The notes: generated from the sequence alone by a model not told the origin. A stretch of DNA of 63,940 bases, filler included, from Globobulimina sp. (GCA_003354225.1; 29 parts of 29 records of this genome joined end to end with filler, not necessarily neighbours in it); one strand, 5' to 3'. Numbered from the whole stretch's first letter, positions 13,449-26,516 are shown. Numbers and translations: made by a program.

Positions 13449-15316
13449 AAGGGTGTTGAAAATGGTAACCAAAAACAAAGCGCATAAACTATAAATACAG
13501 TCACTTAAAGCTTGCAATCACCTCTGTTTTAGTATATCGATTTAAAATCGTTAACTCATTAAAATAGAACATAAAACAGAGGGAATATGCATCAGAAAAA
13601 TATCAGGCGATTAATCAATAAACAACTTCAATATAATCATCCTCACTGGAAAAAGATGAAGAAGAAAGCCAAAGCGAATTTGATTAAACAGATCATGGAA
13701 GAAGTTAAAAATGATTATGATTTTACCCAGGATTTGAACATTCCCATCGAAGAACTTACAGGCATTGAAGAACAAATGCCTACTAAAGGGATTATAACGA
13801 TTGCTGAAATGGCTGAATATATAAATAATTATTACAGTGATAATCTTTTCAATCTGAACATTACAAGAAAACCATTTTCCGAGATTGTAGATCAAGAGCT
13901 TATATTCATTGATGATCTACTTGATAATGAAATTATCAATAGTCTTCTTGCACCTGATGGCTATACAGCTTCCCACAGGGACATCCATCCCTATCAGTTG
14001 TTTAGAATGGAGCTTTTAAAAGTCATAAAGTACCCTGAAATAAGTTACAGGAAATTCTGTACTGAAGAGTATTTTGGCCCGGAAAGGAAACAAAATAGAA
14101 GATTTGTCGGATTACCATTAAATACAAAAAAGATCATTCATCATACAGAACTGTGTCATTTTCGAACCGGGTTATCTTTCCCCAAATTGATGAATGTTCT
14201 TGTTTACATTCTTCATTATTTATATAAATCCGGGAGCTTAGAAAATTCGTTAGTGCATGGAATTGATTCATCAGAACTCCCATCGGAAACCAACTATCCC
14301 TTATGCACAATAAAAGTCAAAGGCAAAAAAGTCCGGATTTACTCTGACCCTGACTGTGATTGTGGAAAACGTCGAAACAAAAGAGATAAGTCTCAGTATG
14401 TTATTGGTTATCGAATACACACGCTTACAGCAATCAATCCTTCCACAGGGCACAGTTTCCCCTTGGTATCTCTTGTCGGAGCAGCGAATCATCATGATAG
14501 TCTCTTTTTAACACCTTTAATCAAACTTGCACAGACAATGGGCATCGACGTAAAATTGCTGACAGCAGATCAAGCCTATCATGATAGCGATGGTTCTGTA
14601 CTTGAGGAGACCGGGGTTTATGTCATAGCACCTCCGTCTAAAAAAGCCGTACTTCCTGAGAATGTTTTGGAGTTTCCGGTGAGAGTAACCTGCAATGATT
14701 CATGTGAAATTCCATTAAGAATTCAGGGGAGTTCGCAACATGGACATGAATTCGGTTGTGTTGCTGAATCTGGAGAATGTATATTTGAATCAAGTTGTCC
14801 AAAATTCAGAAACATTCCATTTGATACCGGATATTTTCAACCCATGCCTACTTTTCTTGAAATGGCTGAAAGAGCAATAGACATCCGCAAAAACTGTGAA
14901 AGACCATTTAATCTTATGAAAAAAAGAGAGGGCCTTGAACAGACAAGAGTAAGAAGTCAACATGGAGTGGTTGCCCGTTCTACATTTACAACAATTGCAA
15001 CATTATTGATTGAAATGGCTGGGACAAGGCAAAAAAACAAAAAAAAAGATGATAAACAAAAGGAGTTATTTCCTGCCACAGGATAAGATAAAGGTTGCAA
15101 CACACACATATTAGATTTTTTTCTAAGCTGATTGCTTTGCTTGTTGTGCTATGGCCTGAATATTATGATGAACCGCTCTTATACGAGTTTTTAAAAGGTT
15201 AAAAACAGAATCAGGTCATATAGTTAACAATTTGAGTAAAAAAACTTAAAAAATATAATTCAAAAACTGAAGGGGCTTTATTTTTCTTTGAAAAATGGAG
15301 AGGCTTCAACACCCTT
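13449..15316 (+). mobile_element. Complete bacterial insertion sequence (DDE; IS4/IS5/IS1182-like), 1868 bp
   Basis: Terminal inverted repeats AAGGGTGTTGAA (13449-13460) and TTCAACACCCTT (15305-15316); direct repeat TAATA at 13444-13448 and 15317-15321; single transposase ORF. Confidence 0.85.
13587..15086 (+). CDS. DDE transposase
   Basis: GIDSS, LTADQAYHD and RKNCERPFNLMK (R-x3-E-x6-K signature); intronless; GAGGG Shine-Dalgarno-like motif just upstream. Confidence 0.88.
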   Translation: MHQKNIRRLINKQLQYNHPHWKKMKKKAKANLIKQIMEEVKNDYDFTQDLNIPIEELTGIEEQMPTKGIITIAEMAEYINNYYSDNLFNLNITRKPFSEIVDQELIFIDDLLDNEIINSLLAPDGYTASHRDIHPYQLFRMELLKVIKYPEISYRKFCTEEYFGPERKQNRRFVGLPLNTKKIIHHTELCHFRTGLSFPKLMNVLVYILHYLYKSGSLENSLVHGIDSSELPSETNYPLCTIKVKGKKVRIYSDPDCDCGKRRNKRDKSQYVIGYRIHTLTAINPSTGHSFPLVSLVGAANHHDSLFLTPLIKLAQTMGIDVKLLTADQAYHDSDGSVLEETGVYVIAPPSKKAVLPENVLEFPVRVTCNDSCEIPLRIQGSSQHGHEFGCVAESGECIFESSCPKFRNIPFDTGYFQPMPTFLEMAERAIDIRKNCERPFNLMKKREGLEQTRVRSQHGVVARSTFTTIATLLIEMAGTRQKNKKKDDKQKELFPATG

Positions 15317-17680: not shown

Positions 17681-19780
17681 TTTTGAATGAGTTACATAAT
17701 AAATTGCATTGTTATAAGCTCGACACATAAACCATTTCCATTCACATTGTAATTGTATATCCGTATCATTATTGTCATTATTATTATTATTATTTGATTG
17801 TGATAACACAATATTTTTATCATTCAATAAATCTATGATATCTATAAAATATTTTTGCGTTTTTTCAATTTCATGTAATTGTGAACCAATCCATAAAATT
17901 ATTAATCTCCGATACATGAATGCTTTATAAATATTTTCTTTATTATTCAAATCAAAACAATTATTGTTCAATATTTTATCCATTATAATTATCCCAAATG
18001 CATATTTATTTTCATTATCAAATCGAAACAAATAATGTATCATTTCCATATATTCCATTTCATAAACATTGAAATCACATTTTTTGATAAAACATTGTAA
18101 ATCTTCTTTATTTTCATTTATTATTAACAAACATTTAAATTGTATCAAATTAATAACTTTTGCAATTTGTAAATTATTATTTATCATATTTTTGCATTCA
18201 TTTATTAGCAATAAACACCGTTTTGAATCATTTATAGCTGTTTCTGTCTGTTTTTCGGCTGATTTTATCTTAAATATAATAGCAAATAACTCACATAATT
18301 TCATTGCAGTTATATCTGGTGCCGATTGTTGCGATTTTGGTATGCGATCAAATAATAAATGCGCACTATCAAATGCATCACAATTATCATTCAAATCTGC
18401 AATAATAAAATCCCATAAATTATGAGCAAAATATTTAATATGTTTAATATTAATTATATTTATATTTACACTCCTTTTTAAATATGATTTCATTTTCTCT
18501 TTTGATTTATCATTATTTTTAATACATTTTTTTAAACATTCAATGATTTGTTTTAATATTTCAACATTTTCTTCAGTTTCAAATGCTTTCTCTAAAATTT
18601 CTAACGTAAAAAATAAACAATTTTCATGTTTTATTGATTGGGCCACAATGGATATTAATATTTCTTTTGAATACAATGGATTTTGTTCAATTTCATGAAA
18701 TATTTCCTTGGCTTTCAAACAATTATTTTGTTGAAAATAACATTGTATTTCACATACCAAACAACTGAAATTATTTTCGCCCGTTTTATTATTTATTTCT
18801 TTTCCTTTTGATATCCATTTTAAAGCTTCATTAAATTGTTTTAAATCAATGCATAAAACAGAAAGAAATCGCCAAAAATCAGTGCTTGAAATGTCTGTAT
18901 TTGCTGGTAAATGTTCGATAAAATTAACTGCCACACTCAAAAACCTTAAACTTATTTGTGACTGTTGTATGGATTTAAAATGAATTGCGATATTCCAGAT
19001 TTTCATAGCAATCGCAATACGCATTGACTCTGTCCATTGTTGCGGATTTTTTATACTTACTTTTGTAATTTCAGCCATAATTTGAGTTTTATCGCCAATA
19101 TCAACTGTTTTTAGACATAATTTCCGCAATAAAACGGATGGATTTTCTCCAAATCGACCACTTAAAATATTTAGTGCTTGATCTGCGATGTGATATTGTT
19201 GATAATTTTGACATGAATCAACAATTTGTATTCCACTCTCAATTGCAATTTTATTTGTTTTTAATGGCTCTAAGATATAATTTGAAATTTGTTCCTTTTT
19301 CATCGTATCACTCGATAAACATAAAACACATCGAATATGGACCAAATGTGTCCATAACTCGCCACTTTCTTTGTCATTATCTATTTCTAATGCATTTATC
19401 GTATCATTTATCACTGCAATCGGCATAATTAATGATTTTTTATTAATATTTTGCTGTTTGCTATTAAATAAATACAATCCTAACACTATTCTACCAATGA
19501 TAATATTTATATAATTAATATCTTTTATATTTTCTGCGTTTATGTCAGGATTGTTTGTACTTTGTGCAATTTTTAATGCGGCAACAAAACAATTTGCAAC
19601 GTAAGTTTTATTATTTTCACATTTAAATTGTGTGAATGCGATGTTATTATATAAACTCATTGCAATTCGTAATAAATGTTCAATGCAATGCTGCGATGAT
19701 ATTGTTACTATTTCAGTTAATATTTCATCCACAATACTTTCGTTTTCCTTTTCTTTTGTAATATAAGATTTTATTTCCAT
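17681..19780 (-). CDS. TPR-like protein resembling meiotic ZIP4/SPO22/TEX11, 3' partial
   Basis: All-helical; motifs IWNIAIHF, RFLSVLCIDLKQFNEALKWI and EWKWFMCRAYNNAIYY in the order seen in TEX11/ZIP4. Confidence 0.55.
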
Positions 19781-19889
19781 TATTTTTAANNNNNNNNNNN
19801 NNNNNNNNNNNNNNNNNNNNNNNNNNNNNNNNNTTAATTAATTAANNNNNNNNNNNNNNNNNNNNNNNNNNNNNNNNNNNNNNNNNNNN

Positions 19890-24307: not shown

Positions 24308-26415
24308 TCATCACAGGATAGAATTAAAATAATTTTCTGACAAATTCCAAGAAAAAAAGAATCTGCCAATAACGATATTATTTTCGCATTCCATTTGTTT
24401 ACATGTTTTAGTTTGCCGTGGCCATAAATTATTGTTCCAACAAAGGAATGAAAGTAAACTTCCCTCGCTTCCTTCGGCTTATTTTCCTTCCATTTGAGCT
24501 TTGCATAGACCTTCAATTCGTAAATAAATCTATAAACAAAAAAGAAAACCAATGCACCGACTCCCACCACCGAAAAATATGTGTAATATTCCAACTGATT
24601 ATATTCCACAAAATCTAATGACAGATAACAAACTCGAATTAAATAATTGGTAAACTTGATGATTTTCTGCGAATCGATAAAACTCAGTGAATCGGCGGAA
24701 AACGAGGTGGCTTCGGTTTGGGTGTCGTCAATCTCTGCGCCATCGGTGGTGGTTTGATACGCAAAAATTGAGAGTTGGAATACTTCGTAAAATAATAAGA
24801 AAATTGCTAGGATTGAGCCTAAATTCAATTTAAATTTCTGTGGCTTATATCGCTGTTCGTTTGGTTTCAGTTTCTTTCTTTCTTCGAAGGATTTGACGCC
24901 TCTCCAAGTCCCAAACAACTGCAATAATAAAATAATAAATAAATACGACGATATAAACCAAATAATTACACTGTCATTCTGCTCATAGAAAGGTATTATA
25001 AAATAAATAATAAAAATGGGATAAATGACTAAAAATATGAACATAAACAAAGATCTTAATAATTGGTTTAGAACTCGCATAAAACGTTGCCATTTGGTTT
25101 CTAATTTTAGCGCAGCCTCACGGATTCCGACATTTTTTGAGGTGGTTTCGACTTTACTCATTCGCACAATCAATAAAAAGAAGCAGGACGGCAAAATCAC
25201 GCAGATTGCCACAATTACCACCAATAAATATGTCAGCGGTGTTATTAAGATTTTGAATGAATTTATCAGCACAATTTTGCATTTTTGGCCTTGATCCGAT
25301 GGCTCCAATGACTGCACTTCGATCATCAGCAATAACTCCGATAATAAATAAAACATATTTTCTAAATCAGCAAAAACATTATCAATTAACTTTCGCGCGG
25401 CTTTCCAGTCAGCAATTTTTTTATTAATTTTTTTGAGTATTTCGCCAATTCGAGTTTTTTTCATTTTCGTTTGTAACTCCATTTCGTGCCTTTGTTTTTG
25501 TAACGTTTCCAATTCCTTTTCTTTTCTTTCTTGTTTCAATTCCTCCGCTTCCTCTTCCTCTCCCTTCGTTTCTTGCAATTGCTCAGATTCAGAAATTACA
25601 GAAACTGATCCCTTTGACTTTGATGATTCTGATTCTGATATCGATCTACTTTTTATTTTTAACATTTGTAATTCCTCACTCCGTTCACTTTCATCATCGT
25701 CATCATCTTCATCTTCCTCTTCATCACTGCTTTCTGCCCTTTTTATGTCTGCTGATTTCTGTTCAATTTCTTCAAAAACATCATCCATCAAAAATAAATC
25801 CGCATCCATCGGAGCAGCAAGCATTTCTGGTTCTGGTTCTGGCTCATAATCAAATCCAGCAACAGCAGGAACAGCGGGAGCCACAGCACCATACAAATCA
25901 TCACCAATATCACTATCAATTGATACTATCGGCTCTTCTTCCGGATACAATTCTGGTTTTGTTTCTAATTCAATTAATTCCATCTCTTTTTCTTCAAAAA
26001 AAGTAAACTCCAACTCTTTTTTCCCAATTTTCGGCATTTTTATTTTTGGCATTTTAATACTCGGCATTTTTATGCTCGGTCCACTAAATCCGCCGCACAT
26101 TAATCCACCACGTCTTAGGTTCGACCGAATTAGTATATTTTGAATATCCCAAAAGTGTTTCTGCATTGTGTCGTGATCCAAAGCACATATAACATGACAA
26201 AATATAACACGATTCTGGCATTGATTAACTTCAATAAATGCGTCCTGAATAAATCTAATCGCAGCGTCATAACATTGCTCATAATGTTGTTTGTCTGCGT
26301 CTGCATCCTCAGCAATTGCTTTATAATCAGGTCCCTCCCATGGTTTCCCTCGCCATCCCGCCTCATCACTAAAACATGAACTTAATGATATTTGCGACTG
26401 TATTTTCTCCCGAAA
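24308..26415 (-). CDS. G-protein alpha C-terminal domain fused in frame to acidic linker, coiled coil and multi-pass membrane region; partial at both ends
   Basis: Frame is open from the contig edge: FREKI..QISLSSCF...AAIRFIQDAFIEVN...IFCHVICALDHDTMQKHFWDIQNILIRSNLRRGGLM, then no stop for about 600 more codons with 5-6 hydrophobic segments. Confidence 0.75.
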
Positions 26416-26516
26416 TNNNNNNNNNNNNNNNNNNNNNNNNNNNNNNNNNNNNNNNNNNNNTTAATTAATTAANNNNNNNNNNNNNNNNNNNNNNNNNNNN
26501 NNNNNNNNNNNNNNNN

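Follow-up and report, generated by a model that had tools for sequence, protein, structure and literature searches.

A G-alpha end that runs on into a multi-pass membrane module: a candidate cassette fusion in Globobulimina sp.

One contig (24308-26416) of a 63,940-nucleotide stretch of DNA from Globobulimina sp. (GCA_003354225.1; the whole stretch is here called the window) encodes the C-terminal end of a heterotrimeric G-alpha domain that does not stop at its tail. Instead, the same frame continues through a glycine-rich hinge, an acidic leash and a long helix into a polytopic membrane module. The contig comes from the interior of a single real gene, and the junction between G-alpha and membrane parts is real, not an artefact. 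Probably, the gene is a true fusion from a cassette family, in which the membrane module is constant and G-alpha is tethered to it. Judged by its relatives, G-alpha is one among several interchangeable cassettes and not the defining feature of the protein.

The reading frame, on the minus strand from 26415, spans 702 codons uninterrupted by a stop and runs off the contig on either side; the remaining two frames have many stops, and the G+C content is 35.6%. The original prediction had the frame open from the contig edge, although the listed open reading frame starts only at a TTG at 26181, and had it continue without a stop from a G4-G5/alpha5 end of G-alpha into MPSIK/MPKIK repeats, an acidic linker, a coiled coil and 5-6 transmembrane segments. 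This layout is borne out: the repeat (3.1-3.3 copies), a linker with 51 acidic residues, a helix at residues 287-364 and six hydrophobic segments all follow in the one frame. The G-alpha end stands as to the G5 box, helix alpha5 and tail; the NKxD G4 box itself lies off the contig, which begins at the phenylalanine right after that box (NKDDL in relatives). The G1-G4 boxes and helical domain of this gene would lie farther upstream, past the edge of the contig. (Two contigs of sequencing runs, one of 1251 bases from X1, record 8, and one of 772 bases from X5, record 16, extend beyond 26416.)

The identity of the G-alpha part is supported by three comparisons: with Pfam, with solved structures, and with relatives. 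The G-alpha profile (PF00503), when searched against the contig translation, gives E 3.3e-7 and 30.2 bits, under its gathering cut-off of 48.8, and only the end of the profile is covered: residues 1-94 match positions 263-332 of 333, about a fifth of the domain. Among solved structures, G-alpha-o is matched (E 4.3e-5): residues 48-105 lie opposite 275-332 of its 333-residue chain, up to the second-last residue; strand beta6 with the G5 box, alpha5 and the tail align residue for residue. Over the G-alpha part, identity to ten relatives (398-813 aa; PF00503 precomputed) is 59-70%. A helix is predicted, with low confidence, at residues 81-101, the alpha5 region.

Two features distinguish this protein (the query) from heterotrimeric G-alpha: its G5 box reads ICAL, not TCAT, and its tail is internal. 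The G5 substitution had been noted at the outset, as ICA for TCA, and is confirmed against the nearest free-standing relatives; TCAT is found in 11 of 22 non-fused relatives aligned, and the query keeps the C and A but has replaced both T residues. The tail, in turn, was said to be normally a free C-terminus, and indeed 24 of 27 non-fused relatives stop 0-2 residues past it (the other three run on for 32-58). On the contig, 596 residues follow the tail, and all five fused proteins known from this work have 596-1529 residues beyond it. The segment IRSNLRRGGLM is identical in the query, in the fused relative P0017 (protein handles are ours) and in free-standing relatives. Free-standing copies that end after GGLM, named in the original prediction as a possible refutation, do exist: all nine (P0006-P0014, 398-418 aa) have a single V and then end. 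They do not refute the fusion, because the fused domain derives from those paralogues.

Independent assemblies carry the junction. Logan contigs of four runs (X1, X5, X6 and X8) were placed on the contig, and were counted as bridging if they had at least 31 letters on each side of 26097/26098. Contigs from X1, X5 and X6 bridge it (Table 1), as the original prediction would lead one to look for, and P0017 has the same junction; run X8 has no contig over 26097/26098, and X5 record 13, with 23 letters on the low side of the junction only, was excluded. No two of the three bridging runs share a study code or an organism code. Logan contigs are assembled from words of 31 bases, and each word that spans the junction is therefore present in the reads of each of these runs, two diverged copies included. 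Farther along, X1 record 3 (24584-25479) and X5 record 10 (24845-25469) connect the membrane part with the helix upstream of the family signature described below. Continuity over the stretches that lack such contigs rests on the window contig and on collinearity with P0017.

More than one version of the gene is evident. Over 26065-26314, X1 holds two G-alpha versions (0 and 20 differences in 250 bases; depths 5.1 and 6.3), and X5 holds a similar pair. Since each version extends into the hinge, two or more fused copies or alleles exist. One-sided contigs of X1 and X5 end at 25337, 25346, 25386 and 25389, and an X6 contig ends at 25302. The ends at 25337-25389 fall in the DNA of the signature helix (KLIDNVFADLENMFYLL), which suggests that paralogues are near-identical there and differ on either side. 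Such near-identity would seem to favour recombination at this site.

The loose ends at 25337-25389 are among the points that favour an artefact, either a chimera, made in assembly or amplification, between genes for a free-standing G-alpha and for a membrane protein, or adjacent genes read as one. The others are the low-complexity linker and the free-standing relatives that end at GGLMV. All of them must be set against 31-base words over the junction in three runs that were assembled independently, with two diverged copies among them; the same junction and same order of parts in P0017; a frame intact across 702 codons; and derived residues shared by the G-alpha parts of the query and of fused P0017. 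The artefact explanation is largely refuted, and we regard it as very improbable.

The segments that join the G-alpha tail to the membrane are recognizable in relatives. The hinge (CGGFSG) has counterparts in P0017 (AGG), P0034 (CGGGGGGGGF) and P0042 (CGGGGGGS), and after the Ras cassette of P0002 (KGGGF). The MP[SK]IK repeat that follows has a 15-base unit (3.1-3.3 copies, 26027-26079) and is an expanded copy of a family motif, PS(I/L)S(M/L)P, represented by PSISMPS in P0017, PSLPSISMP in P0002 and LPSLSLP in P0003. The acidic leash, of about 170 residues, is weakly conserved even in comparison with P0017; residues 121-286 include 51 D/E and 18 K/R. A structure model of the contig fragment has a mean pLDDT (predicted local distance difference test) of 48.6 and was read for disorder and secondary structure alone: it predicts none of the latter over residues 102-286 (pLDDT 22-35), and a long helix over residues 287-364. 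One X6 contig lacks 146 bases of the leash (25870-26017), and the skipped part does not have GT..AG ends on the coding strand; copies that differ in length, not an intron, seem the likelier cause.

The long helix ends in the family signature. Eight residues (D345, N346, F348, D350, L351, E352, F355 and Y356) are invariant among 13 sequences, and the query has the signature helix K(L/I)(I/V)DN(V/I)FADLEN, a match that is partly circular in that the query is itself a row of the 13-sequence alignment (A3) that defines the invariant columns. In those relatives that have an R-SNARE motif, the motif lies immediately before this helix.

Relatives were identified through several searches. A search of proteins of 1230-3510 residues found one, P0017 (1357 aa, E 3.6e-168). 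This protein begins with a 170-residue domain, followed by G-alpha at 184-544 (E 4.3e-47, 161.3 bits, profile positions 2-332); the tail and linker read ...IRSNLRRGGLM-AGGPSISMPS, and after them an acidic stretch leads to WKAARKLIDNVFADLENMFYLLS and about ten membrane helices. By BLASTP, the query and P0017 are 58% identical over 448 residues (helix plus module) and 57% identical over 93 residues across the junction. A HMMER scan of 1.84 billion representatives returned 256 hits at E <=0.001, with E-values of 1e-84 to 1e-168 between the query and family members. Pfam analysis of 35 of the longer hits found G-alpha and the module together in P0017, P0034, P0042 and P0059; in P0034 and P0042 the tail ...GL runs directly into CGGGGGG(GGF). 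Scans of metagenomes with P0001 and with A3 gave 592 and 242 pattern matches, respectively, and 0 confirmed relatives.

What precedes the module varies. Among 46 proteins with the module, Ras is matched by 13, Roc by 10, Synaptobrevin by 8, Arf by 7, G-alpha by 5 (counting the query) and SNARE by 3; ubiquitin occurs in P0028, and a C2 domain in P0060. In every case the cassette is followed by a linker, Gly-rich or of the PS.S.P type, and by the invariant helix DN(V/I)FxDLE. Ras cassettes have their best PDB scores with Ras, Rap and Ral (E 2e-15 to 1e-11). A word-index search with the P0017 module found eight proteins, seven of them with Ras and only P0017 itself with G-alpha; the G-alpha form is therefore rare in the clade of the query. 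In P0016, a longin domain and synaptobrevin directly precede the signature helix, but the query has no SNARE or synaptobrevin (PF00957) match even at E up to 10. By these arrangements the gene belongs to an unnamed eukaryotic family, in which one membrane module with its helix bears interchangeable cytosolic cassettes at the same hinge: Ras/Rap-like (the commonest), R-SNARE, ubiquitin and G-alpha.

Other peculiarities of the cassettes and of related proteins may be mentioned here. In P0002, P0004, P0019 and P0025 the Ras cassette matches Pfam in two stretches of swapped order, with profile positions of about 45-160 or 73-161 first and the P-loop segment (GxxGxGKS...DTAGQE) after them; this looks like a circularly permuted or tandem-truncated Ras domain. 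The model of the permuted GTPase RsgA is matched by 4 of the 46 members. A hidden Markov model (HMM) of the N-terminal domain, made from eight relatives, matched only those eight and P0142; it did not match P0034, P0042 or P0059, nor the longin region of P0016, and we do not call that domain longin-like.

In the membrane module of the query, hydrophobic segments are at residues 399-417, 456-474, 483-501, 528-546, 614-632 and 679-697 by hydropathy scan, and the module runs past the contig end; the full modules of P0017 and P0003 have 10-11 segments. The membrane part is 67% identical to that of P0002 and 58% identical to that of P0017. Conserved motifs are LQxxGTxR, ExxQ and FHSFxGTIxYGHG, with the R and Q invariant across 46 sequences; in the 13-sequence alignment P409, R418, E423 and R432 do not vary, and Q499, G502, R505 and Q547 hardly do. 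Conserved polar residues in or near the membrane suggest an active unit.

Beyond the cassettes, no Pfam family has more than one member among the 46 module-bearing proteins. An AlphaFold model of the P0003 module, made with 46 sequences, has pLDDT 86.8 and pTM (predicted template modelling score) 0.86; with it, Foldseek against the PDB gave a best E of 0.16 (0 matches at E 0.001), and VIA-align against 48,161 chains gave a best Z of 7.1, on helical pieces of about 100 residues (0 at Z 8). That no solved fold matches does not show that the fold is new. A profile search of the PDB with alignment A2 gave only a weak match to the SNARE motif of VAMP4 (E 0.0026), and an Atlas search with the module gave only unnamed clusters. 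The fungal-type TRP/FLC membrane family (PF06011) matches the query at E 0.037 and 13.3 bits, with a cut-off of 28.5; it is not among the 25 families listed (of 53 matched) for the 46 module members, and an Atlas cluster at rank 6 (score 0.89) has it on 25% of its members.

Trees of the two halves were compared: a module tree (32 rows, 360 columns) and a G-alpha tree (106 columns). In the former, the query pairs with Ras-type P0002 (support 97), and both join P0017 (99) within a 13-row clade (100); P0034/P0042 and P0059 are in the other clade, of 19 rows. In the latter, the partner of the query is P0017 (support 85, not starred), and the pair lies among free-standing forms, and P0034, P0042 and P0059 are separate (98). 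The query and P0017 share DIQNIL and ALD, where free forms have DVQNIV and ATD. G-alpha is thus found on both module clades and comes from two G-alpha lineages, which fits repeated capture at the same hinge. For the query, the source is the free-standing G-alpha of its own lineage (about 70% identity), taken nearly whole, minus the last residue and the stop. The affinity of the query changes along its length: residues 331-390 are nearer P0017 than P0002, and from about residue 420 on the query is slightly nearer P0002 than P0017 in each 30-residue window (the final 12-residue window is tied, 11/12). Such a mixed affinity could stem from an exchange of cassettes or from gene conversion among paralogues.

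The four full-length fused proteins have all (4/4) replaced the Arg and Thr of switch I and lost the DVGGQ (DxxG) of switch II. In place of the latter, P0017 has EAPKK, P0034 IPEQA, P0042 VPEQH and P0059 FWDQK. The G4 box is NKDD in P0017, TGRD in both P0034 and P0042, and not aligned to NKxD in P0059; the P-loop GK(S/T) is kept in all but P0042. With switch I Arg/Thr and switch II DxxG lost, these four copies probably do not cycle like normal G-alpha. In another set of proteins (P0092, P0119, P0137 and P0153; 584-1097 aa) G-alpha is at the very C-terminus, with a free tail and an N-terminal extension, and several of these have degenerate switches.

How might such a protein work? The membrane module would be the constant working part, a transporter-, channel- or enzyme-like unit and not a passive anchor; this reading is suggested by the conserved intramembrane Q, R and E together with the YGHG loop. 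The tethered GTPase would serve as a permanently membrane-anchored switch or adaptor, recruiting or regulating partners at that membrane, and the tether would take the place of the lipid anchor of free forms, of which the MGCC start is presumably the sign. A receptor normally grips the C-terminal tail of G-alpha to trigger nucleotide release. With alpha5 continuing as polypeptide, canonical insertion of the tail in a seven-transmembrane (7TM) receptor would be unlikely, an argument that rests on established knowledge of alpha5. To the combination of these three elements (working module, anchored switch or adaptor, tail insertion unlikely) we give about an even chance. Signalling by the fused G-alpha independently of G-protein-coupled receptors (GPCRs), as the original prediction proposed, is a conjecture.

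The nearly unaltered tail could also be read quite differently, as part of a self-contained receptor and transducer in which the module acts on its own G-alpha like a GPCR, through alpha5 or the hinge, and drives nucleotide exchange. The near-unchanged alpha5 and tail (IRSNLRRGGLM identical), the fact that the tail always leads into a Gly hinge, and the conserved polar residues within the membrane all agree with this. However, the leash from tail to membrane is about 230 residues long, unstructured and unconserved, and would make a poor mechanical link; the same module bears Ras-like and SNARE cassettes, and hence is not specialized for G-alpha; and DxxG of switch II is absent from 4/4 full-length fused G-alphas. 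A built-in receptor is, in our estimate, quite unlikely. Somewhat less remote, yet still doubtful, is a trafficking device: a family that arose from an R-SNARE with an enlarged membrane anchor, and whose GTPase cassettes, that of G-alpha among them, regulate membrane fusion or vesicle identity instead of acting in signalling. The 8 Synaptobrevin and 3 SNARE matches among the 46 members, the longin and synaptobrevin domains directly before the signature helix of P0016, the weak match of the A2 profile to VAMP4 (E 0.0026), and a weak synaptobrevin match beside the G-alpha of P0059 speak for it. Against it, neither the query (E up to 10) nor P0017 has a SNARE match; the HMM of the shared N-terminal domain does not match the canonical longin region of P0016; and the GTPases most like the Ras cassettes (Ras, Rap and Ral) act in signalling, with no Rab among the 60 PDB chains listed.

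A broader proposal goes beyond the tethered cassette fusion favoured here. The family would be eukaryotic polytopic membrane proteins in which the Gly hinge and the KLIDNVFADLEN helix together form a socket that has repeatedly received Ras/Rap-like, R-SNARE, ubiquitin and G-alpha domains, the last in at least two module clades. In the G-alpha members the receptor-contact tail would be connected to the module of the same protein; the nucleotide state would be read or set there in place of a 7TM receptor, and the whole would be a self-contained, receptor-independent G-alpha unit for signalling or gating. Taken in full, we consider this rather unlikely.

Several points weigh against the fused, tethered cassette protein as we favour it. 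No contigs are listed for 25479-25598 and 25747-25930, and the repeat at 25507-25569 is skipped. Run X1 may come from the same sample as the window assembly. The gene is known here from DNA contigs, and no listed run is on record as RNA. The membrane half of the query is nearer to Ras-type P0002 than to G-alpha-type P0017 (support 97; 72% identity). The visible G-alpha of the query is 72% identical to P0006, with a terminal branch of 0.18, versus 1.0 in P0017; being closer to normal forms than is P0017, it may be an active GTPase. Finally, the module is without a Pfam family, a solved fold or a named Atlas cluster.

Known proteins provide partial parallels. Miro, atlastin/Sey1 and mitofusin are membrane-anchored GTPases. 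The 7TM-RGS proteins have a G-protein regulator in an integral membrane protein (PMC3971589). Compared by description, each of these places a GTPase or G-protein regulator in a membrane protein, and none is known to have a G-alpha domain or the module of the query. Plant extra-large G proteins (XLG) contain G-alpha within a larger protein, with non-canonical GTPase motifs, a soluble N-terminal extension and a free tail. Again by description, an embedded G-alpha is the likeness, and the difference is that the extension of the query is a C-terminal polytopic membrane module; plant XLG proteins are mentioned in the abstract of PMC5945058. Longin R-SNAREs (VAMP7, Sec22 and Ykt6; PF00957 and PF13774) resemble the module paralogues that have synaptobrevin/SNARE, and P0016 with its longin; the query differs in having no SNARE motif, and the family anchor has 10-11 helices versus one. 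Free-standing G-alpha proteins start with MGCC, versus the 170-residue N-terminal domain in fused P0017, and differ likewise from the full-length fused copies in the degenerate switches I and II (4/4) of the latter.

A further parallel is from the same lineage. P0015 (813 aa) combines a multi-pass XK-related domain (PF09815) with a same-lineage G-alpha, 62% identical to the query fragment. Its membrane part, however, is N-terminal, its tail is free (...RRGGLSLV), and its G1-G3 and switch motifs are intact. This opposite order implies that fusions of G-alpha with membrane domains arose in the lineage by at least two routes. In full-text searches of the literature and in passages of PMC3971589, no account of G-alpha joined to a membrane or SNARE module was found; Anantharaman et al. 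2011 (PMC3396428) and the Reticulomyxa genome paper (DOI 10.1016/j.cub.2013.11.027) lie outside this scope.

The window as a whole is not one locus: it consists of 29 contigs of 2106-2110 bases, with N44-TTAATTAATTAA-N44 spacers between them. Other contigs carry eukaryotic genes, for a dual-specificity phosphatase, an EML-type WD40 protein, NAGLU and a UPF1-like helicase, as well as a SAM domain, a Myb domain and a DDE transposase. The transposase is a 503-codon open reading frame at 13575-15083 (+) that matches PF01609 (E 6.3e-6), which suggests a mobile element in the genome. A second contig, 17681-19789 (-), is open from end to end (703 codons, 24.8% G+C) and has 0 Pfam matches.

Table 1. 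Features of the G-alpha/membrane-module contig and Logan contigs that bridge its junction (window positions)
Feature	Position	Strand	Basis or remark
Whole contig, internal fragment of one gene	24308..26416	(-)	Frame open end to end
C-terminal G-alpha part (residues 1-106): post-G4 stretch, beta6/G5 loop, helix alpha5, tail NLRRGGLM	26098..26415	(-)	Pfam, PDB, relatives
G5 box, ICAL	26179..26190	(-)	Alignment; TCAT in nearest free-standing relatives, MNAL in P0017
Tail NLRRGGLM, internal here	26098..26121	(-)	C-terminus in free-standing relatives (then V + stop)
Gly-rich hinge CGGFSG	26080..26097	(-)	Similar hinges in other members; G-alpha junction at 26097/26098
PSIK-(MP[SK]IK)x3 repeat	26023..26079	(-)	Tandem repeat
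Acidic low-complexity leash, predicted unstructured	25558..26022	(-)	Structure model, composition
Long helix (residues 287-364) with family signature KLIDNVFADLENMFYLL at its end (25342-25392)	25324..25557	(-)	Structure model, invariant columns
First six membrane helices	24310..25221	(-)	Hydropathy scan, conserved columns
X1 record 6	26065-26314		Bridges junction, 0 differences
X1 record 7	26065-26314		Bridges junction, 20 differences
X5 record 12	26065-26212		Bridges junction, 0 differences
X6 record 21	26017-26174		Bridges junction, 15 differences

A natural, conserved protein with an internal G-alpha tail provides a test case for G-alpha without a receptor. The analysis also uncovers a membrane family that has no Pfam family or solved fold, and whose cassettes appear to be swapped among Ras-like, SNARE and G-alpha domains. 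Such exchange would amount to a clean experiment of nature, with domains swapped between switches for signalling and switches for trafficking. Moreover, should the module prove to conduct ions or transport solutes as a channel or a transporter does, the family would represent a novel type of membrane protein gated by a GTPase.

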